DNA of 64,000 nt from contig CAVYSY010000038.1 of NCBI GenBank assembly GCA_963771175.1, forward strand, positions 128,001 through 192,000, written 5' to 3'. Every line of letters begins with the position of its first letter. Positions within the stretch are counted from its first letter, which is position 1. Positions 4,227 to 14,646 of this stretch are shown here, in pieces. Position numbers and translations under genes: made by a program. This DNA comes from an uncultured delta proteobacterium (GTDB lineage Bacteria; Myxococcota; Myxococcia; Myxococcales; Myxococcaceae). The notes beneath the pieces are model-generated. The model was not told the DNA's origin and did not search any database. It saw only the letters and a program-made list of their open reading frames with translations.

Positions 4227-4874
4227 TCAGTGGGGCAGGAGGCTCGCCGCCCGCTGCAACACGCCCCGCCAGCCCGAGAGCCGGATGTCCTCGCACTCCT
4301 CGCGCGCCAGGGCCCAGCAGCCCTCCTTCGGGTCCGCGGTGAGCTCGTGCGTCGAGCCCGCGGGCGCGCTGCTCCAGTCCCCCGCCTCCAGGAACCGGCC
4401 CCGGTCCCATGCGCCGCCCGCCACCACCAGCGTCTCCTCCCCGCCCCGGTGCGCGTGCCTCGGGAAGCGAGCCCCCGCCGGCAGGTGGACCAGGTAGAGC
4501 GCGCACCCGCCCGATTCGTCCCTCAGCAGGCGGGACACCCGGCTGCCCTCGCTCAGCAGCGAGTGCCACCGCCAGTGCTCCGGTGGCGGCAGCTCCGCCA
4601 GCAGCGCGGGGGGCAGGGGCAGGCCTTCCACGGGCCTCGGTTGCTCGCGTCGGGACGCCTCCTCCCAGACGCGGCCGAAGAGGTCCGGCGGCACGGGCGC
4701 CTCGGGCACGGCCTCCAGCACGGTGCCTCCGGCGGCCCCCAGGCGACCTGCCCGCCGGGCGCAGTCATCACAAAAGGAGAGATGCGTCTCCACCAGAAGG
4801 CGCAGTGGCACGTCCGCGGCTCCCGTGGCGTAGGCCAGCAACCGCTCGGTCGAGGGATGGTTCGCAGGCTTCAT
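4227..4874 (-). CDS. chrR: ChrR-type anti-sigma factor (zinc anti-sigma domain plus cupin)
   Basis: HP...LLAYATG...HLSFCDDC (HxxxCxxC), cupin PRHAHRGGEETLVVAG; directly downstream of the ECF sigma factor. Confidence 0.88.
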   Translation of the reverse strand: MKPANHPSTERLLAYATGAADVPLRLLVETHLSFCDDCARRAGRLGAAGGTVLEAVPEAPVPPDLFGRVWEEASRREQPRPVEGLPLPPALLAELPPPEHWRWHSLLSEGSRVSRLLRDESGGCALYLVHLPAGARFPRHAHRGGEETLVVAGGAWDRGRFLEAGDWSSAPAGSTHELTADPKEGCWALAREECEDIRLSGWRGVLQRAASLLPH

Positions 4875-4878
4875 CGCT

Positions 4879-5400
4879 TCACTCCGTCAGCAGGGCGCGC
4901 ATGTGCAGCAGGGCCATCCGGACTCGGGACTTGAAGGTGCCCAGGGGCACGGCGAGCGCCGTCGCCGCCTCCTCGTGCGTGTAACCCCCCAGCACCGCCA
5001 GCTCGACGGCCTGACGCTGCTCCGGGCTCAACCCGTCCAGCGCGCGTGCGAGGCTCATCGATAGCTCGGGGTCCGCCCGCACCAGTTCCCGCAGCGGCTC
5101 CTCCGCCTCGGGGGGCGCGGGCGCCTCTCCCGACTTCCGACGGCGCCACCGGTCCACCAGCTTGTGGCGCGCGATCATGTACATCCACGCCAGGGGCGTG
5201 CCGTGCTCGGGCCGGTAGCTGGACGCCTTCTGCCAGATGGCGGTGAAGACGTCCTGCACCACGTCCTCGGCGAGCGCGCGATCCCTCGTCACGCGCAGCA
5301 CGTAGCCCAGCAGTCGGCCCGCGTGCCGCTCGTAATAGGACTGGAAGGCATCCTTGCTGCCGCGCGCGATGGCGCACAGCAGCACCCCATCCTCCGCCAT
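4879..5400 (-). CDS. ECF sigma factor (RpoE-ChrR type)
   Basis: LAEDVVQDVF, WMYMIARHKLVDRWR, region 4 VPLGTFKSRVRMAL; GGAGGAG RBS. Confidence 0.92.
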   Translation of the reverse strand: MAEDGVLLCAIARGSKDAFQSYYERHAGRLLGYVLRVTRDRALAEDVVQDVFTAIWQKASSYRPEHGTPLAWMYMIARHKLVDRWRRRKSGEAPAPPEAEEPLRELVRADPELSMSLARALDGLSPEQRQAVELAVLGGYTHEEAATALAVPLGTFKSRVRMALLHMRALLTE

Positions 5401-5536: not shown

Positions 5537-6492
5537 CTAGTCGTTGAACTTGCCAGCACGCGCGTCCTCGAAGGGCACGCGGTGCTTGAGGTACGTGTCC
5601 TGGAGCATGTGGTTGGCGACGAGGTTGATGCCGCCGTCGCCGAAGCGGTGCACCACCGCGTCCTTGCCCGCCTTCTTGAGGAAGGCCAGCGGATCCACAC
5701 TGCCACCCAGGCCGAAGAGCGAGGGCACCATGTCCCGGTTGTTCACGTAGTGCACGTACTTGGGCCCATCCGGGTAGGTGGCCGCGGCGGCCCCGAAGGT
5801 CTCCACGTTCACCCGGCTCATGGTCTTCTCGACCTCGGCCTTGGACATCCCATCTTCGATGCGCAGCCGGTTGTAGACGTCCTTGAGCGCCCGGCTGGTG
5901 ATGAGGCCGCCCTGGCTGTAGCCCATCAGGTCCACCGACCGGCCCGCCTTCAGCTCCGAGTAGACGGTGTCCGCCAGCGTGTCCACCGCCGGGTTGCGGC
6001 CCTTGTCCAGCTTGTCCTTCACGCACTGGGCCAGGTCGCTGATGAAGCCCTCGGTGGAGTTGTGGATGCCGATGGTGCGCGCCCCCGACTTGTCGGCGAT
6101 GGCCTGGAGGTCGCTCGACTGCGCCTCCTTGGGCGTCATGATGCCGTTGACGTAGATGATGGTCTTCGTCGGGTTGGGGTTGTTCTTCGGCATCACCGCC
6201 GGAATCTGGCTCAGCGGCGTGCCCGGCGGGAACGTCTTCCCGTTGGCGCCCACGAACTGGCCGTCATGCACCCGGTCCGGCGGCTTGCTGCCACCCAGCA
6301 GGCTCGTCACCTGCCGCACCGGCCCCGACTCGAAGGCGTCCACGCCCTGCTTCACCACCTTGGCGCCCTCGGCCACCGCGTTCTTCACGGTGTTGACCGC
6401 GGCGTTCGCGGTCTGCTGGGCTTCTCGAGGGTCTGACGCGCGCCCTGGCCCACGTGGGACAGGGGGTTGCGGTTGCGATCGATGGTGCTCAT
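5537..6492 (-). CDS. Alpha/beta-hydrolase-fold (lipase-like) protein; one frameshift near 6420
   Basis: AGGAG RBS plus ATG at 6492 (MSTIDRNRNPLS...TLEK) joins the long frame (AQQTANAAV...) after a 1-nt shift; YVNGI, nucleophile elbow GYSQG, VETFGAA, candidate D and H (RDMVP, ANHML). Confidence 0.78.
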
Positions 6493-6615
6493 GGGGGCTC
6501 CTACGAATTGTCCGTTGCTCCATTCTCCCACGAAGCGGTGCGGAAGTTGCGTACCCCCCGCACTTTTCTGGCACGGTACCGTCCCCCTCTCTCCCTACAC
6601 GAAAGGAAGAAATCC

Positions 6616-6882
6616 ATGAGCGCGAAGCGTCTTCTGTCGTCGGCGGTGCTCCTGTCGGGCCTGCTGGCCCTCGCGGCCTGCGGCAGTGCCGAGATTGGCG
6701 AGGAGTGCGACAAGACGGGCAGCACCGACGAGTGCGTCGAGGGCGGCGTCTGCGACACCCTCGGCGGCGGCAGCACCACCCTGCAGTGTCTGAAGATCTG
6801 CACCGCGGACACCGACTGCCCCTCCACCCAGTCCTGCACCGGCGTGAGTGGCAGCAACCTGAAGGCCTGCCACAACAAGTAG
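6616..6882 (+). CDS. Small disulfide-rich lipoprotein
   Basis: AAGGA RBS; lipobox LAAC; eight further Cys in about 65 aa. Confidence 0.8.
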   Translation: MSAKRLLSSAVLLSGLLALAACGSAEIGEECDKTGSTDECVEGGVCDTLGGGSTTLQCLKICTADTDCPSTQSCTGVSGSNLKACHNK

Positions 6883-7034
6883 GAATTCCGGCTCCGCGCG
6901 CGTGGCCGCTCTGACGGTGCGGGTGGGCTCGATCGAACCCATCCTCAAGCGGCAAGCAGCCACGCGCGCCGGGGTGAGTGCTCCTCGGGGCTTCCCGAAT
7001 GGCTACATCAATCCCAGGAGGAAGGGGTAAAGCC

Positions 7035-7451
7035 ATGCGTGAGAGCATTCTGGCGGCGATGATCTCGGCCGTGTCCTGGGGGGCGATGGGCACCGCCCTC
7101 GCGCAGCAGGGCAACTACCCGCTACAGCAACCCATGGCCGGCAGTTACTACCAGCAGCAGCCCATGGCCGGGAGCTACCAACTCCAGCAGCCCATGGCCG
7201 GGAGCTACTACCTCCAGCAGCCCATGGCGGGGAGCTACCAACTCCAGCAGCCCATGGCCGGGAGCTACCAACTCCAGCAACCGATGACTGGCAGCTACTA
7301 CCTCCAGCAGCCCATGGCGGGGAGCTATTACCTCCAGCAGCCGCTCATCGGCAGCGACTATGTCGAGCCGCTCTTCGACAACGACGTCTACGACATCAAC
7401 GAGCCCTACGTCGGCGGCTACGACCTCTATCCCCTTGACGCATCGGAGTAG
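7035..7451 (+). CDS. Secreted tandem-repeat protein (QQPMAGSYxL x8)
   Basis: Signal peptide ending ALA-QQ; in-frame 10-aa repeats with synonymous third-position variation; acidic Tyr-rich tail. Confidence 0.75.
   Translation: MRESILAAMISAVSWGAMGTALAQQGNYPLQQPMAGSYYQQQPMAGSYQLQQPMAGSYYLQQPMAGSYQLQQPMAGSYQLQQPMTGSYYLQQPMAGSYYLQQPLIGSDYVEPLFDNDVYDINEPYVGGYDLYPLDASE
7125..7364 (+). repeat. 30-bp coding tandem repeat, 8 units (last one degenerate)
   Basis: CAGCAGCCCATGGCCGGGAGCTACCAACTC-like units starting at 7125, 7155 ... 7335. Confidence 0.95.
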
Positions 7452-7702
7452 GAGGACCCCAAGGGTCAGCAGCCGAGCCGCTCCGTCATCCGCGTCTCAA
7501 CTCCGTGAGGGACGCTTCGCTCGAGCCTCAAGCCATCCGGCTGGCGTGAGGGGTGCGGTGGGGCTGTCACTCGAACCTCCCCCGGGAAGGGGACGGGCCC
7601 TCCCATGGCCGCCTGCCCTGCCTTGGCATGCGCGGGTGGAAGACGCACCTTCATCAAGCCTCACCCGTCCCGAAGACCTGGAGAGGGCGGAAGGAGAGCA
7701 TC

Positions 7703-9391
7703 ATGGAAGGCAGCCCACCTACCGGATGGCAGGCAATGGAGGCTGCGCCCGCAACGGCGACCGAGGTCGAGCACCCCCTGCCCCCCCGCACCCACTCCTT
7801 GAAACAGTTCATCCTGCGACTCCGCGACGCCAATAGACGCGGAGGCCCCGAGGCCATCGAGCAGGTGCTGCGCGAGGGCAGCCTGCACCGGCGCGCGGTG
7901 GAGCCCTTCGCCCTGCGGCGCGAGGGGCGCTACACGCGCACGCTCGTGTACCGGGACGAGGACTTGGAGGTGCTCGTGCTGGGCTGGGGCCGCGACGCGC
8001 GCACGCCCATCCACGGGCATGACGGCCAGGAGTGTTTCCTCACCACCATTACCGGGGAGCTGGAGGTGGCTGACTACCGCCTCATCGCCGGAGGCCAGGA
8101 GCCCGGCTATGCGCTCGTCGAGCGCGTCGGCCCCCGCCGTACGCTGCTGCCCGGCGCCATGGACCACCGCGGCCCCGAGGCGGAGCTGCACTCGGTGCGC
8201 ACCGGCGCGCGCAGCGGCTACGCCATCTCCCTCCACGTCTATTCCCGGCCCATCGACACCTGCCTGGTCTACGACCCACGCCGTTCGAGTTGCGACCTGC
8301 GCAAGCTTCATTACGACCGGGTGATGCGCCTCGTCGACCCCCCGCCCCCCACCGCCTCCCCTCGTCCCCAGGAGACGCCCGCCTCCCGCCCCGGACTCGT
8401 CTCCCGGGTGTGGCGCTCGCTCTTCCGCCGCGTGCAGGAGGTGAAGGAACTGCTGGTGCCCGCGAAGGTGGGCGCGGACTCGGCGAAGATCGCCGTCTCG
8501 AAGGTGGAGCACCGCTACGCCAACAAGGTGGTGGCGCTGAGCAACGTCAACCTCAACATCCGCTCCGGCGAGTTCGTCTGCCTGTTGGGGCCCTCGGGCT
8601 GCGGCAAGTCCACGCTGCTGTACGCGCTGGCGGGCCACATCGCCCCCACCGGGGGCACGGTGCGCATCGACGGCAAGCCCATCCACGGCCCGGGTCCGGA
8701 GCGGCTGCTCATGTTCCAGGAGCCGGCGCTCTTCCCGTGGCTCTCCGTGCGGCAGAACATCGAGTTCGTGCTCAGCGCCCGAGGCCTCTCCAAGGCCGAG
8801 CGCCGCGAGCGCGCGAGCCGCTACATCCACTACGTGCAGCTCTCGGGCTTCGAGAACACGCTGCCGCACGAGCTGTCGGGTGGAATGAAGATGCGCGCCG
8901 CGCTCGCCCGCGCGCTGGCGGTGGACTCGCCGGTGCTGTTGATGGACGAGCCCTTCGGCTCGCTGGACGCGCAGACGCGCCTGCACATGCACGAGCTGTT
9001 GCAGCGCGTGTGGCTGGAGACACACAAGACGATTGTCTTCGTCACCCATGACGTCACGGAGGCGCTGGTGCTGGCCAACCGGGTGGTGGTGATGGCGCCC
9101 CGGCCCGGCCGCGTCCTGAAGGACCTCGAGGTGCGGCTGCCCATGCCGCGAGGCCCCGACGACGTGGCGCTGGTGGGACTGGCGCGGCAGATCCGCGTGA
9201 TGCTCCGCGAGAGCGAGTCCATGGGCGGACCCGGGCCCGGTCTCCGGGAAGAGCAGGGGGCGCACCATGAAGGCCTGGCACCTGAGTCAGAAACTGCTGT
9301 TCCTCGCGGGGCTCCTCGCGGTGTGGGCCCTGCTCGCCCGGTTCGGCCCGTGGCCCCACCACCTGTTCCCGGGTCCGAAGGCGGTAGCTGA
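7703..9391 (+). CDS. Cysteine-dioxygenase-like cupin fused to nitrate/sulfonate/taurine-type ABC ATPase
   Basis: AAGGAG RBS; YTRTLV, TPIHGH, LHSV, AISLHVYSRP (CDO-type motifs); then Walker A GPSGCGKS, LSGGMK, LLMDEPF, FVTHD in the same frame. Confidence 0.85.
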   Translation: MEGSPPTGWQAMEAAPATATEVEHPLPPRTHSLKQFILRLRDANRRGGPEAIEQVLREGSLHRRAVEPFALRREGRYTRTLVYRDEDLEVLVLGWGRDARTPIHGHDGQECFLTTITGELEVADYRLIAGGQEPGYALVERVGPRRTLLPGAMDHRGPEAELHSVRTGARSGYAISLHVYSRPIDTCLVYDPRRSSCDLRKLHYDRVMRLVDPPPPTASPRPQETPASRPGLVSRVWRSLFRRVQEVKELLVPAKVGADSAKIAVSKVEHRYANKVVALSNVNLNIRSGEFVCLLGPSGCGKSTLLYALAGHIAPTGGTVRIDGKPIHGPGPERLLMFQEPALFPWLSVRQNIEFVLSARGLSKAERRERASRYIHYVQLSGFENTLPHELSGGMKMRAALARALAVDSPVLLMDEPFGSLDAQTRLHMHELLQRVWLETHKTIVFVTHDVTEALVLANRVVVMAPRPGRVLKDLEVRLPMPRGPDDVALVGLARQIRVMLRESESMGGPGPGLREEQGAHHEGLAPESETAVPRGAPRGVGPARPVRPVAPPPVPGSEGGS

Positions 9392-10031
9392 GAGCCTCTT
9401 CGCCATGGCGCGGGATGGCCGGCTGTGGAACGCCATCACGCGCTCCCTGGGGCGGCTCGCGCAGGGCTACGGCATCTCGGTGCTCATCGGCGTGCCGCTC
9501 GGCCTCGCCATGGGGCGACTGCGCTTCGTGCGGCGGTTGCTGCGCCCGCTGGTCGTGGGCCTGCAGGCGCTCCCCTCCATCTGCTGGCTGCCCCTGGCGC
9601 TGCTGTGGTTCGGCCTCACCGAGACGTCCATCATCTTCGTGGTGGTGATGGGCTCGGTGCTGGCCATCGCCATCGCGGTGGAGGACGGCGTCATGGGGGT
9701 GGACCCGCTGATGCTGCGCGTGGCCTCCACCTACGGCATCCGCGGCCCGCGCTTCTACGGCGGCGTGCTGCTGCCCGCGGCGCTGCCCGGCATCGTCACC
9801 GGCCTCAAGCTGGGGTGGAGCTTCGCCTGGAGGGCCCTCATGGCCGGCGAGCTGCTCTACGTGTCCGGCGGCCTGGGCCAGCTCCTCACCATGGGCCGCG
9901 AGCTGATGGAGATTCCCCAGGTCATCGCCGTCATGGTCTGCATCATCCTCGTGGGCACGGTCATCGACCGGGTGCTCTTCCAGACGGTGGAGCTGCGCGT
10001 GCGGCGCCGCTGGGGACTGGCGACGGGCTGA
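9267..10031 (+). CDS. ABC transporter permease (SsuC/TauC/NrtB family)
   Basis: LFPGPKAV, LQALPSICWLPLALLWFG, LPAALPGIVTGLKLGWSFAWRALMAGEL. Confidence 0.92.
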   Translation: MKAWHLSQKLLFLAGLLAVWALLARFGPWPHHLFPGPKAVAESLFAMARDGRLWNAITRSLGRLAQGYGISVLIGVPLGLAMGRLRFVRRLLRPLVVGLQALPSICWLPLALLWFGLTETSIIFVVVMGSVLAIAIAVEDGVMGVDPLMLRVASTYGIRGPRFYGGVLLPAALPGIVTGLKLGWSFAWRALMAGELLYVSGGLGQLLTMGRELMEIPQVIAVMVCIILVGTVIDRVLFQTVELRVRRRWGLATG

Positions 10032-10093
10032 CAGTCACCCCGCACTCCAGTCCATGTGCGGCGAGCCCCGCCCCACCCCACCCTGAGCGGCCT

Positions 10094-11113
10094 ATGCGTA
10101 TCGGGTTCCTCGTCGCGAGTCTCGCCGCCCTCTGTCTGGCGGTGACCGGGTGCAAGAAGGAGCAGGCGGCGAAGCAGGCCGGCGGTGGGACGGAGCAGCG
10201 CCCGCTCCGGGTGGGCTTCTTCCCCAACATCACCCATGCGCAGGCCCTGGTGGGCAACGCCTCGGGGACCTTCCAGCAGGCCGTGCCCGGCATCGAGCTG
10301 AAGATGTTCAACGCGGGACCGGCCGCCATGGAGGCGCTCACCTCCGGCTCGCTCGAGGCCTCGTACGTGGGCACGGGGCCGGCCATCAACACCTTCCTCA
10401 AGGCCGGGCGGGAGCTGCGCATCATCGCCGCGGCGGTGGACAGTGGCGCGGTGCTGGTGACGAAGACGGCGCGCGGCCCGGCGGAGCTCAAGGGCAAGAC
10501 GCTGGCCAGCCCACAGCTCGGCAACACCCAGGACATCGCGCTGCGGCACTGGCTGGGCCAGCAGGGATTGAAGGTGGGGCAGGACGTCACCGTCACCCCG
10601 CTGTCCAACCCGGACATCCTCGGCCTCTTCCTCAACGGCAAGATTGAAGGGGCCTGGGTGCCCGAGCCGTGGGGCGCGCGCATGGTGGCCGAGGGCGGTG
10701 GCCATATCCTCGTGGACGAGCGCGACCTGTGGCCACAGCGGCGCTTCCACACCACGGTGCTCGTCACCACCCGGAAGACCCTGGAGGAGCGGCGCGAGCA
10801 ACTGAAGAAGCTGGTGCGCGCCCACGTGGAGCTCACCCGGCAGTGGCAGCAGCAGCCCGACGCCTTCGTCGGCCGCGTCAACGACGCCTTCGCCAAGGTG
10901 ACCGGACACCCCATCTCCGAGCCCGTGCTGAAGGATGCCTTCACCCGCCTGGAGCCCGCGCTGGACGCGGTGCCCGCTCAGCTCCAGACGGCCGCCGAGC
11001 ACGCACAACAGCTCGGCTTCATCCCCAGCTCCGACCTGAAGGGGCTCGTGGACGACTCCCTGCTGCGCGAGGTGATGGCCGCTCCGAGCGCGGCTCCGGA
11101 CGCGGGGCCGTGA
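10094..11113 (+). CDS. ABC substrate-binding lipoprotein (SsuA-like aliphatic sulfonate family)
   Basis: Lipobox VTGC; GFFPNITHAQALVG, FNAGP, PQLGNTQD, WVPEPW. Confidence 0.9.
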   Translation: MRIGFLVASLAALCLAVTGCKKEQAAKQAGGGTEQRPLRVGFFPNITHAQALVGNASGTFQQAVPGIELKMFNAGPAAMEALTSGSLEASYVGTGPAINTFLKAGRELRIIAAAVDSGAVLVTKTARGPAELKGKTLASPQLGNTQDIALRHWLGQQGLKVGQDVTVTPLSNPDILGLFLNGKIEGAWVPEPWGARMVAEGGGHILVDERDLWPQRRFHTTVLVTTRKTLEERREQLKKLVRAHVELTRQWQQQPDAFVGRVNDAFAKVTGHPISEPVLKDAFTRLEPALDAVPAQLQTAAEHAQQLGFIPSSDLKGLVDDSLLREVMAAPSAAPDAGP

Positions 11114-11135: not shown

Positions 11136-11444
11136 TCAGCTCAGCTTCGGCGGGACGCGGTAGATTTCCTCCACGTCGTCGTGGTTGAAGAGCCCCATCG
11201 CCTCGCGCTGCACGATGAGCGACCACTGGCGGTACTCGGCATCACGACGCTTCTCGGTGTACTCCGCGAGCTTCTTCTCGCGCGCGGGTCCTGGCGCCAT
11301 CGCCTGCACCTGCTGCCCGAGCTGTCTCAGCTCGGTGAGCTGACGCTCCAACCTGTGCCCCAGGGCCTTGAGGCTGTTGGCTGCCTCGGCCCGCAGGGCC
11401 ACTTCGATGGCGAGTGTTCCACCGATGGGTGCCTTGCTGGACAT
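11136..11444 (-). CDS. Small helical hypothetical protein (DUF6665-like)
   Basis: E-A-SL--LG, WSLIVQREAMGL, YRVP motif pattern; high GC3. Confidence 0.7.
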   Translation of the reverse strand: MSSKAPIGGTLAIEVALRAEAANSLKALGHRLERQLTELRQLGQQVQAMAPGPAREKKLAEYTEKRRDAEYRQWSLIVQREAMGLFNHDDVEEIYRVPPKLS

Positions 11445-11499
11445 GCGCTCGATTTGGGGCCGGAAACGAGAGCGGGTTACGGTTCCAGCCCAGTCTCTC

Positions 11500-14400
11500 A
11501 TGACCGCCAAAAAATACCTTCATCTCTTCCTGGTCATCGGAGGCGTCCTCGGAGCTCTCGTGCTCGGCGGCGCGCTCCACTTCGTCACCGGCCAGCCGAG
11601 GGACTGGGCTGGCTGGTCCGTGTTGCTCCTCGGCACGCCCCTGCTGCTGCTGGTGACGAGTCAGCTCTTCTGGTGGGTGTGGGGGGCGAAGCGGGTCAGG
11701 GCGCGCACCCGCTTCTTCACCCAACTGGCCGAGGGAAACCTCACCCACACCGCCTATGGCGGCATGGAAGACCAGCGCGAGGTGCGCCGGCTCATCTACT
11801 CCCTGCGCCGCGCGCTCAGCCAGGTGCAGCGGGTGACGGGCAACGTGCGCCGCACCTGCCAGGGCGTGTCCGAGGAGGTGCGCGTGCTGCTGGAGGCCGC
11901 GCGCCGGCAGGGCGGGGCGGTGGAGCGCTCGCGGGAGTCGGTGGAGAGCATGGGCCAGAGCCTCCAGTCCGCGGGCAAGCGCATGACGCACCTGGAGACC
12001 TTCTCCCGGGAGACGGCGGGCTCGCTGCTCGAGATGTCCGAGCGGCTCGGACAGGTGGCCGAGGCGCTGCTCGCGCTGGACGACTTCTCGCACCGCACCA
12101 CCCAGCAGGTGCAGGCCATGAGCGAGCGGCTGCACCATATCGCCTCCTCGGGCGACGAGCTGGTGCGCTTCGCCAGCGAGGCGGAGGCCTTCGTCCAACT
12201 GGTGCGGACCGGCATCGACGCGGTGCGCCTGCGCGCCACGGAGACGAATCAGCTCGCCCACGACGTGACGGCCACCGCCGAGCGCGGCGAGGTGCTCGTC
12301 ACCGAGTGCGTCCAGGGCATGTACCGGGTGGAGGAGACGGTCCGCAAAGCCGCCGAGCTGGTGGACTCGCTCGGGGTGCGCTCCACGCAGATTGGCCGCA
12401 TCGTCGACGTCATCCAGGAGATCGCCGACCAGACGAACCTGCTGGCGCTCAACGCGGCCATCATCGCCGCGCAAGCCGGTGAGCAGGGGCGTCCCTTCGG
12501 CGTGGTGGCGGACGAAATCCGCGGCCTGGCCGAGCGCACCGCTCGCTCCACGCGGGAGATCGCCACCATGGTGGGCGGCGTCCGCCGGGAGGTGGACACG
12601 GCGGTGGCGCTGGTGAAGGAGGGCCGCGAGCAGGCCGGCACGGGTGTGCTGTTGGGAGACCGGGCGGCCGAGGCGCTGAAGGAAATCCGCACCATCACCC
12701 AGCGAACCTTCACGGCGGTGGAGGCCACGCTGACGGAGACGAAGCGGCTGGAGGCCCAGGGCTCCACGGTGGTGGAGGCCAGCCGCCGGGTGGCGCGGCG
12801 CGTGGACGACGTGACGCGAGAGGCCATCGCGCAGGCGGGGCACGGGCGAGAGCTGGTGCACCAGACGCAGCAGATGGCGAAGCTGGCACAGGAAGCCTCG
12901 CACAAGGCGGAGGGCCAGTCGCGCACGGGCCGGGACCTGTCCAACGCGGTGGTGCGACTGAACTCGGCCATCGAGGAGATTCGTTCGGCGCACGGCGTGC
13001 TGATGCGCGGGGACACGGCCATCGGCGAGGAGGTGGCGCGGGTGCGCGAGGACGCGCTCCAGGTCCTCCGCATCGGCGACGGACTGAGCCGCACGGTGGA
13101 GCAACTGGCCCACGAGGCGGCCAGCCTGGACGGCGAGGTGTTCCGCTTCCGGCTGCCGGCGCCACGCTCGGGCGGCACGCTCCGGGCGGGCATCCACCAG
13201 TCGACGTTCCTCAACACGCAGGGTCGATTGGATCCACTCTTCGGCGTGGAAATGCAGCTCGTGGAGATGAGCTGCGGCGTCTTCTCCAACCTGCTGCGGC
13301 TGGAGGACGGCGTGCTGGTGCCGGACCTGGCCGAGCGCTGGGAGGCGGACCCCTCGGCGCGCCGCTACCGCTTCTACCTGCGCCAGGGCGTCCTCTTCCA
13401 TGACGGGCAGCCCCTGACGGCGCGCGACGTGAAGCGCCACTTCGAGCGGCTGCTGGACCCGACGGTGAAATCGCCGGAGCGCGGCCTGCTGGAGGACGTA
13501 GAGGGCGCCAAGGCGTTCGCGGCCGGCAAGGCGCGTGAGGTGACGGGCATCGAGGTGCTGAACGACCTGACGCTCGACATCCGGCTGGAACAGCCCAAGG
13601 CCTTCTTCCTCCAACTGCTGGCGCAGACGGCCGCGGCGGTGGCCCGGCTGGACGCACAGGGCCAGCTTCAGGGCACGGGTCCCTTCCGGCTGGTGGACAT
13701 CGGGCCGACTCGCGTCGTGCTCGAGCGAAACCCCACCTATTGGCGCCGCGAACAGCCGCTGTTGGACCGGCTCGAGTTCCACATCCATGGGTCGCGCGAG
13801 GAATCCATCACGGCGCTGCGACAAGGGACGGTGGACCTCGCCTCGTACCTGCACGCCACACACGTGAAGCGCCTCGAGCAGGAGGGGCACCTCCAAGTCG
13901 TGCCAGGCACCACGCCCTCCACCTCGTTCCTGGGCTTCAACCTGCGAGAGGCACCGTACAACGACGTGCGCGTGCGCCAGGCCATTCGGGCGGGACTGGA
14001 CCTCCAGGGGTTGGTGAACGGCTTCCACGCGGGGGCACGCCTGGCCAGGACGCTGACACCGCCGGAGCTGCTGGACAGCTCGGGTCTGCCCGAGCCCCGC
14101 ATGGACCTCGACCTGTCCGTGCGCCTGCTGCACGAGGCCGGAGTGCGGCGGCTCCCCGTGACGCTGTACCAGACGGTGGGACGCGACACCTCGGCGGAGG
14201 ATGCCGTCCTCTTCCGCCCGCTGCTGGAGGCGGGGCTGGTGGAGCTGCGGCATGTGGAGGTGAGCGCGGAGGAGTTCGCGGAGCGGCGGCGCGAGGGACG
14301 GCTGCCCGTCTTCCGGTTGCACTGGGTCGCCGACTTCCCGGACCCGGACAACTTCCTCCACTTCCTGCTGAGCTCCCAAGCGCAGGGGGTGTACCCGCTG

Positions 14401-14646
14401 AGCTACCGCAACGAGGAGCTGGACACGCTCACCGCGGAGGCCCGCATCAGCATCGACCCGGAGCAGCGCAAGCAGCACTACCAGCGTGCGGAGAAGCTCG
14501 CCCAGCAGGACTGCCCCATCATCCCGCTCTTCCATCCCCGCGTGTACGCTGCGACGAGCGGCCGGGTGCAGGGACTTCGACTGCACCAGACGCCCCCCCA
14601 GGTGCGCTTCGAGGAGCTGTGGTTGGACGCGATGGAGGAGTCATGA
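11500..14646 (+). CDS. Methyl-accepting chemotaxis protein with C-terminal family-5 (peptide/nickel) solute-binding domain
   Basis: Two N-terminal TM helices, HAMP-like segment, IADQTNLLALNAAIIAAQAGEQGRPFGVVADEIRGLA; then PDLAERWE, FHDGQPLTARDV, GTGPF, VRVRQAI, WVADFPDPDNF. Confidence 0.92.
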   Translation: MTAKKYLHLFLVIGGVLGALVLGGALHFVTGQPRDWAGWSVLLLGTPLLLLVTSQLFWWVWGAKRVRARTRFFTQLAEGNLTHTAYGGMEDQREVRRLIYSLRRALSQVQRVTGNVRRTCQGVSEEVRVLLEAARRQGGAVERSRESVESMGQSLQSAGKRMTHLETFSRETAGSLLEMSERLGQVAEALLALDDFSHRTTQQVQAMSERLHHIASSGDELVRFASEAEAFVQLVRTGIDAVRLRATETNQLAHDVTATAERGEVLVTECVQGMYRVEETVRKAAELVDSLGVRSTQIGRIVDVIQEIADQTNLLALNAAIIAAQAGEQGRPFGVVADEIRGLAERTARSTREIATMVGGVRREVDTAVALVKEGREQAGTGVLLGDRAAEALKEIRTITQRTFTAVEATLTETKRLEAQGSTVVEASRRVARRVDDVTREAIAQAGHGRELVHQTQQMAKLAQEASHKAEGQSRTGRDLSNAVVRLNSAIEEIRSAHGVLMRGDTAIGEEVARVREDALQVLRIGDGLSRTVEQLAHEAASLDGEVFRFRLPAPRSGGTLRAGIHQSTFLNTQGRLDPLFGVEMQLVEMSCGVFSNLLRLEDGVLVPDLAERWEADPSARRYRFYLRQGVLFHDGQPLTARDVKRHFERLLDPTVKSPERGLLEDVEGAKAFAAGKAREVTGIEVLNDLTLDIRLEQPKAFFLQLLAQTAAAVARLDAQGQLQGTGPFRLVDIGPTRVVLERNPTYWRREQPLLDRLEFHIHGSREESITALRQGTVDLASYLHATHVKRLEQEGHLQVVPGTTPSTSFLGFNLREAPYNDVRVRQAIRAGLDLQGLVNGFHAGARLARTLTPPELLDSSGLPEPRMDLDLSVRLLHEAGVRRLPVTLYQTVGRDTSAEDAVLFRPLLEAGLVELRHVEVSAEEFAERRREGRLPVFRLHWVADFPDPDNFLHFLLSSQAQGVYPLSYRNEELDTLTAEARISIDPEQRKQHYQRAEKLAQQDCPIIPLFHPRVYAATSGRVQGLRLHQTPPQVRFEELWLDAMEES

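Follow-up and report, generated by a model that had tools for sequence, protein, structure and literature searches.

A cysteine-dioxygenase-type cupin fused to the ATPase of a TauABC/SsuABC-like importer in Archangium and related myxobacteria

We describe a gene from an uncultured myxobacterium in which a cupin domain of the cysteine dioxygenase (CDO) type is joined to the ATPase of an ATP-binding cassette (ABC) importer. The gene lies in a stretch of 64,000 nucleotides (nt), called the window below, from the contig CAVYSY010000038.1 of assembly GCA_963771175.1 (positions 128,001 to 192,000, forward strand). The genome is a 9.8 Mb bin of 58 contigs that is 82% complete, and its closest records are Archangium spp. 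The fusion gene is followed by genes for a permease and a substrate-binding lipoprotein. The features of this locus are given here in window coordinates, with lengths in amino acids (aa) and the evidence on which each feature rests.

7703..9391, + strand: fusion gene (cupin, linker, ABC ATPase and C-terminal tail), 562 aa; open frame, Pfam domains, orthologues
7790..8338, + strand: cysteine-dioxygenase-type cupin domain, residues 30-212; CDO_I match, AlphaFold2 (AF2) model, Foldseek, dN/dS
7937..8263, + strand: span of the catalytic residues, Y77 to C187; HMMER alignment to rat/mouse CDO chains
8339..8488, + strand: linker, residues 213-262; pLDDT, dN/dS, length variation, motif in cupin-less ATPases
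8489..9217, + strand: ABC nucleotide-binding domain, residues 263-505; ABC_tran, NCBIfam, Foldseek
9218..9391, + strand: disordered C-terminal tail; pLDDT about 30
9267..10031, + strand: permease, 254 aa; BPD_transp_1, E 5e-21
10097..11113, + strand: substrate-binding lipoprotein, 338 aa, with a signal peptide ending LAVTGC; NMT1_2, E 1.5e-39

The fusion gene sits in an enclosing open reading frame (ORF; 7553..9391, +) that is open throughout. Its ATG at 7703 has the sequence GGAGAG 6 nt upstream, the alignments of orthologues begin at residue 1, and the GC content at third codon positions (GC3) of the frame is 0.88. An earlier note on this DNA had read the locus as one uninterrupted frame with a good ribosome-binding site that encodes a cupin carrying HGH...H and SLHVY motifs, a Pro-rich linker and a complete ABC ATPase, followed by genes for a permease and an SsuA-like binding protein. 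This description of the architecture is correct in every particular. The cupin motifs are H104-G105-H106, H163 and residues 176-180, the Pro-rich stretch DPPPPTASPRPQETPASRPG lies C-terminal of the cupin, and ABC_tran covers residues 279-418 of the fusion protein (E 7.4e-32 in Pfam). Downstream, the lipoprotein passes NMT1_2 at 137 bits and falls half a bit short of the SsuA_fam model TIGR01728 (163.0 versus a cut-off of 163.5).

The cupin matches the CDO_I family (PF05995) over residues 70-192, with 44 bits against a cut-off of 23 (E 2.3e-11), and scores 46.7 bits in the genome search. Its best sequence matches in the Protein Data Bank (PDB) are chains of mammalian CDO1 (E 1.7e-10), while B. 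subtilis CdoA reaches only E 0.001. In the HMMER alignment, residues Y58, R60, H86, H88 and C93 of rat CDO correspond to Y77, R79, H104, H106 and C111 of the fusion, and H140, S153, H155, Y157 and C164 correspond to H163, S176, H178, Y180 and C187. This rat CDO numbering is consistent with the variant names in the PDB titles. H86, H88 and H140 are the iron ligands of rat CDO; the three-His iron-site positions are filled by H104, H106 and H163, and are retained in 41 of 45 fusion sequences (41 protein clusters plus 4 locus translations, partly redundant). The Ser-His-Tyr network of the second sphere is present as S176, H178 and Y180, within SLHVY. At the position of rat R60, which is Gln in enzymes of the MDO type, the fusion has R79, alongside Y77, and this Arg is invariant in the fusion sequences (45/45). 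The accessible text of PMC8050391 states that this residue decides cysteine specificity.

Both positions of the CDO cross-link are occupied, by C111 (window 8033-8035) and Y180 (window 8240-8242). Judged by its sequence, the cupin is an Arg-type CDO domain with a complete second sphere, in which both residues of the thioether, Cys and Tyr, are present. The Cys-Tyr cross-link is described, in the same part of PMC8050391, as a feature of eukaryotic CDO, with bacterial forms carrying an unmodified Tyr. An AF2 model of the cupin domain is confident (pLDDT 91.3, pTM 0.82), and mammalian CDO takes the first 22 Foldseek ranks listed for this model (TMt 0.79-0.84 to rat and human CDO), with bacterial MDOs at 0.69-0.74. 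Thus the fold, the 3-His site, the substrate-binding Tyr58/Arg60 pair, the Ser-His-Tyr network and the Cys93/Tyr157 positions are common to the cupin and mammalian CDO1 (2b5h, 2atf, 6bgf). However, CDO1 is a soluble monomer of 200 aa, whereas this cupin is a domain of a 562-aa transporter ATPase, with 21-23% identity in the structural alignment. The bacterial enzymes B. subtilis CdoA (4qm8/3eqe) and P. aeruginosa and A. vinelandii MDO (4tlf, 6xb9) belong to the same family and act in the catabolism of cysteine or other thiols to sulfinate and sulfite. These are stand-alone proteins and weaker matches, and the MDOs are of the Gln type, unlike the Arg-type fusion cupin with its Cys at the cross-link position.

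The fusion is neither chance nor a misassembly. The whole frame is found without a stop in 15 of 17 genomes of the same genus, at 80-84% identity. In a further genome (G011) the frame is present, divided between two contig ends, and the remaining one (G007, 73% complete) has no match to it. Mean dN/dS values over the 15 distinct Archangium orthologues are 0.18 (cupin), 0.50 (linker) and 0.21 (ATPase domain). In public sequencing runs, a 10.6 kb contig from run X1, which may be the source sample, covers 7600-9400 gap-free and with 13 differences. The linker shows a single indel in these runs, a deletion of 6 nt in a contig from run X2 that keeps the frame. A stop or indel dividing the linker into two genes, the refuting finding named in the earlier note, is seen neither in these contigs nor in the 15 stop-free orthologues. 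As the cupin lacks a stop codon of its own, its translation runs on into the ATPase. The RNA run X20 is uninformative on transcription: its single contig covers 8746-9400 only, leaving the cupin uncovered, and has 62 differences, which indicates that it derives from a relative. A promoter scan found no promoter-like site, and one terminator-like site was found where 1.5 are expected by chance.

In the full-length AF2 model, built from a 40-sequence alignment (pLDDT 77.9, pTM 0.51), the confident domains are residues 30-212 and 255-505, and pLDDT is below 50 for residues 1-25, 214-232, 237-248 and 509-562. The linker consists of a variable Pro-rich spacer followed by an amphipathic basic helix and an LLVP motif, and its length varies in the alignment. 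It is predicted to be a disordered and flexible connection of some 50 residues. Together with the pTM of 0.51, the predicted disorder would fit a tethered cupin rather than a docked one. Closest among the ATPases that lack the cupin are those of Anaeromyxobacter and relatives, which share 63% identity with the fusion across the ATPase part, and the Anaeromyxobacter-type proteins open with the very basic helix and LLVP motif found here in the second half of the linker. The cupin and the variable Pro-rich spacer were thus added in front of a pre-existing N-terminal extension.

The ATPase itself is complete. It carries a Walker A motif GPSGCGKST (8588-8614), the signature LSGGMKMR, a Walker B motif LLMDEP and the H-loop THD; the Walker A, Q-loop, LSGG, Walker B, D-loop and H-loop elements are all present and are invariant in the sequence alignment. 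The last 125 nt of the ATPase frame (9267-9391) overlap the permease gene in another frame, a detail absent from the earlier note. Over the overlapping codons 522-562 (41 codons), the Archangium orthologues show a dS of 0.07 and a dN/dS of 1.9, which suggests that the tail is a read-through, with the constraint coming from the permease frame. A similar tail is present in the cupin-less Anaeromyxobacter ATPases.

The best Foldseek matches of the ATPase domain are NrtC/D and CmpC/D, with TMt 0.85-0.88 and 37-40% identity. Its NCBIfam scores all lie under the cut-offs (SaoA 230/360, TauB 228/357, ntrCD 208/292 and SsuB 176/395), as do the best matches of the permease, which are SaoP, SsuC and TauC. 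As every NCBIfam equivalog is far below its cut-off, these matches assign neither a named transporter nor a cargo. The solved structure nearest to the lipoprotein is E. coli TauA (E 3e-13). The accessible text of PMC6906117 lists the TauA ligand residues as Gln30, Gly61, Gly79, Glu106, Thr132 and Asp205; this numbering is irreconcilable with that of the chain. Orthologous operons with cupin-less ATPases (L014, L015) gave no hint of the substrate.

The architecture is represented by 41 clusters of at least 500 aa in the protein collection. These include named proteins of Archangium, Vitiosangium, Cystobacter and Melittangium, titled 'ATP-binding cassette domain-containing protein' or 'ABC transporter'. 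We also searched the Genome Taxonomy Database (GTDB), with one genome per species, and found 213 stretches with relatives of the cupin; the locus counts given here and below cover the best 80 of these. Fourteen of the 80 loci are ATPase fusions, from Archangium, Vitiosangium and Myxococcaceae or unclassified metagenome-assembled genomes (MAGs). The other 66 hold stand-alone cupin genes, in Myxococcus, Corallococcus, Pyxidicoccus, Eremiobacterota, Bacteroidota and Acidobacteriota. The fusion is restricted to the Archangiaceae and some Myxococcaceae MAGs. Cupin relatives at E <=1e-15 are found in 74 of 201 sampled genomes of the order.

A search with the cupin alone against 1.84 billion representative sequences gave 994 matches at E <=0.001. 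The nearest relatives are either stand-alone proteins of 180-250 aa (at most 47% identity) or proteins of 600-900 aa with 3-5 tandem cupins. Three of the latter (P0123, P0127 and P0143) carry 3-5 tandem cupins of the CDO type and have a low-GC, eukaryote-like composition. A 251-aa protein, P0129, in which a portion of the linker helix is present, is possibly a fusion that has been truncated. No protein of 985-2810 aa containing the cupin region was found, which is weak evidence, and none of the 80 loci or of the loci L102-L108 showed a cupin encoded by its own gene immediately upstream of a NitT/TauT ATPase. A maximum-likelihood tree of 82 cupins places the 16 fused cupins together on the same side of one branch, whose support is 73/89. 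This tree is compatible with a single origin of the fusion but does not firmly show it.

The catalytic residues are well conserved across the fusions. None of the ten catalytic positions has changed in any of the 31 Archangiaceae-type fusions, and 9 of the 14 distant ones retain the three His ligands along with the Arg, Tyr and Cys. The Ser-His-Tyr set together with Cys111 is conserved in 40 of the 45 sequences, and H106 shares the invariance of R79. In the window genome, and in each of the 16 other matching Archangium genomes, the fused cupin is the only CDO_I match.

We note a bacterial CDO clade with both the Cys at the rat C93 position and the equivalent of Tyr157, represented by the 213 stretches from Myxococcota, Eremiobacterota, Bacteroidota and Acidobacteriota, all of which were found by a pattern that demands this Cys. 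In an alignment of 45 sequences, the Cys is conserved to at least 90%. This brings up bacterial proteins with the Cys and Tyr of the cross-link, a feature that the literature, as represented by the accessible text of PMC8050391, treats as eukaryotic.

The earlier note knew of no description of this architecture, and our literature searches agree: no description of a CDO-ABC ATPase fusion was found in a search without most subscription journals and without InterPro architectures, so that it may be mentioned elsewhere. In a 2023 review on how transporters are regulated, 'cupin' and 'dioxygenase' have 0 occurrences. NCBI and UniRef already list the fusion proteins, named only as ABC proteins, and both Pfam domains are precomputed for them. 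The fusion is a conserved, apparently undescribed and lineage-restricted joining of two well-known families. To our knowledge, it is rare for an enzyme to be joined covalently to an ABC importer ATPase, and the extra domains so far known on such ATPases are regulatory and C-terminal. The fusion points to joint action of a cysteine-type dioxygenase with a TauABC/SsuABC-like importer, and it would give a substrate class to an uncharacterised NitT/TauT branch in soil myxobacteria. It is a concrete system in which to study the physical coupling of organosulfur import to the first oxidation step, or a thiol dioxygenase that serves as a cysteine/O2 sensor of transport.

The gene neighbourhoods of the cupin relatives give some indication of function. 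In the fusion locus L030, a molybdenum enzyme resembling sulfite dehydrogenases ends 1 nt before the fusion gene. This enzyme has Oxidored_molyb and Mo-co_dimer domains, and its best NCBIfam matches are SoxC, SorA and SorT, each below the cut-off. The same enzyme also precedes the stand-alone cupins of L028, L032 and L055, giving a total of 4 of 80 loci. A flavoprotein with NAD_binding_9/Pyr_redox_2 domains adjoins the cupin in 20 of 80 loci, comprising 3 fusions and 17 stand-alone cupins from Eremiobacterota. Its gene is divergent from the fusions in L026, L027 and L029, and from a stand-alone myxobacterial cupin in L102. In the Eremiobacterota (within L058-L094), it lies immediately downstream of the stand-alone cupin, except in L065, where it is upstream. 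That the neighbours are sulfur redox enzymes fits an active dioxygenase in a sulfinate/sulfite pathway. The structural neighbours of the flavoprotein include cyanobacterial fusions of Lactamase_B and NAD_binding_9, and the other names are generic; we do not use these as support.

The earlier note proposed two functions, channelling of the imported organosulfur compound to the oxygenase or a thiol sensor that gates uptake, and either may hold. We tentatively favour the reading that the cupin is an active thiol dioxygenase on a tether and works on the compound being imported, and would give it slightly less than an even chance of being right. The lipoprotein would capture a small cysteine-like organosulfur compound, either a thiol or one that yields a thiol, and the permease/ATPase dimer would import it. 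Two dioxygenase domains, kept at the cytoplasmic face, would next use O2 to convert the thiol into a sulfinate that would pass to sulfite/sulfate or carbon metabolism. The activity of the cupin as an enzyme, its substrate and its coupling to transport are what we infer here. Several features speak for an active enzyme: the catalytic site is complete and under purifying selection, the fold is that of CDO, genes next to its relatives belong to sulfur oxidation, the cupin is the sole CDO_I match and the linker resembles a tether. Bacterial CDOs convert cysteine to cysteine sulfinate and on to pyruvate and sulfite, according to the accessible text of PMC13689094.

For direct action on the cargo, the one argument is the parallel with the tauABCD and ssuEADCB operons. 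In these operons the oxygenase for the imported compound is co-transcribed with its transporter. The ATPase, permease and binding protein belong to the same ABC family as those of E. coli TauABC(D) and SsuABC, and the logic of expressing transporter and oxygenase together is alike. However, the E. coli oxygenases are the separate proteins TauD and SsuD, whereas here a thiol dioxygenase cupin is fused to the ATPase.

Several observations weigh against transport-coupled oxidation. TauA, SsuA and NrtA, the proteins that the binding protein resembles most, have sulfonates or oxyanions as ligands and not thiols. No gene for a downstream pathway accompanies the self-contained operon of Archangium, and in the window genome the homologues of the FAD and sulfite-dehydrogenase enzymes sit on other contigs. 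A NitT/TauT transporter is found in 0 of the 66 stand-alone cupin loci, so the fusion is without independent support from gene neighbourhoods. Furthermore, not all of the fused cupins look catalytic. Four of the 45 fusion sequences lack two of the three His ligands and the Tyr: P0039 has the changes H104Q, H163Y and Y180H, while P0044, P0045 and L013 have H104Q, H163Q and Y180E/D. These four are candidate pseudoenzyme domains. A fifth sequence, P0035, has lost the second-sphere His and the Cys (changes C111S, H178Q and Y77V). The cupin domain and the operon are retained in all five degenerate fusions. For example, in genome G019 the operon of fusion (L013, 6088-7677, -), permease and binding protein is intact, and no CDO_I match was found in this genome. 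That two or more lineages keep a catalytically dead domain argues for a further role that is independent of catalysis.

The main alternative, possible if rather doubtful, is that the cupin is a regulatory sensor. It would bind cysteine, and possibly O2, at its iron site and gate the ATPase by trans-inhibition, as in MetN, ModC and NrtC, with catalysis being secondary or lost. Extra domains of importer ATPases are typically regulatory, according to the accessible text of PMC10710835. In the same source, a domain fused to the ATPase of MetNI (the C2 domain) or ModBC binds a cytoplasmic metabolite and stops transport. These domains have other folds than the cupin, are C-terminal and dimerise beneath the ATPase domains. 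Cyanobacterial NrtC (nitrate) and CmpC (bicarbonate) (8wm7, 8w9m, 9u9z) have the closest solved ATPase domains, belong to the same NitT/TauT family and also carry a fused domain. In NrtC and CmpC this regulatory domain is C-terminal and resembles a solute-binding protein, whereas the fusion has an N-terminal cupin with an enzyme-type active site behind a linker that is predicted to be disordered. Two lineages keep the cupin after losing two metal ligands and the Tyr, while Arg79, the counterpart of the carboxylate-binding Arg60, and His106 are kept in all 45 sequences, as a sensor would allow. The resemblance of the binding protein to sulfonate binders would also make cysteine a product of the pathway rather than its cargo, and cysteine is the end product of sulfur assimilation.

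The arrangement of the protein speaks against a sensor, however. The cupin is N-terminal, behind a poorly conserved linker of variable length (pTM 0.51, dN/dS 0.50), and the predicted disorder of this linker argues against a rigidly docked regulatory domain. The regulatory domains that we know of on importer ATPases are C-terminal. The second-sphere set, conserved in 40 of 45 sequences, would not be required for ligand sensing alone, and the neighbours of the relatives are sulfur-oxidation enzymes. In a more specific form, iron-bound cysteine (with O2) at the CDO site would make the cupin an allosteric gate that controls the ATPase of a sulfur importer. We consider this form unlikely. If it is true, uptake would be tied directly to the cytoplasmic cysteine pool and to oxygen. 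Oxygen would matter here because the desulfonation of sulfonates requires it too. The lineages that lost the ligands would then be pseudoenzyme versions, keeping only ligand sensing via the invariant Arg79. A gate of this kind would have no precedent among ABC importers as an N-terminal regulatory domain derived from an enzyme, and would be a bacterial parallel to the sensor thiol dioxygenases.

A less likely explanation still is that the cupin serves general cytosolic cysteine oxidation, for detoxification or catabolism, as an overflow valve. The fusion would in that case only secure joint production close to a sulfur importer, and neither the cargo nor the ATPase cycle would be directly linked to the oxidation. 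Any general cysteine-dioxygenase role in these genomes must fall to the fused cupin, as their sole CDO_I match, and the relatives in Myxococcus and Corallococcus stand alone, away from transporters. The long and, as modelled, flexible linker would be compatible with independent action, and Bordetella is protected against excess cysteine by CDO according to the accessible text of PMC13689094. Against this, the fusion has been kept across genera at 26-64% cupin identity, and the 16 fused cupins group together in the tree, albeit with moderate support (73/89), which suggests selection on the linkage itself. The degenerate cupins, moreover, are retained in the same architecture.

Finally, an error of sequencing or assembly that joined two genes, or an ATPase made only from an internal start, might be suspected from the RefSeq annotation of the Melittangium boletus gene, which gives only a 321-aa ATPase (P0036), and from the long spurious open frames that arise in high-GC genomes, but stops are absent from the 15 full-length orthologues and from distant fusions, the frame combines its GC3 of 0.88 with the low dN/dS of the cupin, translation of the cupin must enter the ATPase, a separate read-derived contig agrees and the one linker indel is in frame, so that this explanation has a negligible chance and is already close to refuted.

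None of the scanned neighbours in the window points to a sulfur pathway. They are an extracytoplasmic function (ECF) sigma factor, a ChrR-like cupin, an ankyrin protein, a DUF2378 protein, an MCP-SBP_bac_5 protein, an ApbA-like protein and one protein with a weak DUF6665 match (23 bits versus a cut-off of 27). Upstream of the fusion gene, the region 4227-5400 (-) holds the ECF sigma factor (4879-5400) and then the ChrR-type cupin protein (4227-4874), which is probably an anti-sigma factor. A large ORF of uncertain start lies at 5537-7114 (-); it has no Pfam match and contains the sequence GYSQGG, resembling the nucleophile elbow of lipases and esterases. An ORF of 157 aa at 6978-7451 (+) also has no Pfam match. 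It includes a 30-nt tandem repeat of 7.3 copies (7125-7342), coding for repeats of the type QQPMAGSYY(L/Q). Downstream of the lipoprotein gene, 11368-14646 (+) encodes a protein of 1092 aa with an MCP domain at residues 295-468 and a C-terminal SBP_bac_5 domain at residues 650-1005, an order of domains that seemed unusual to us.

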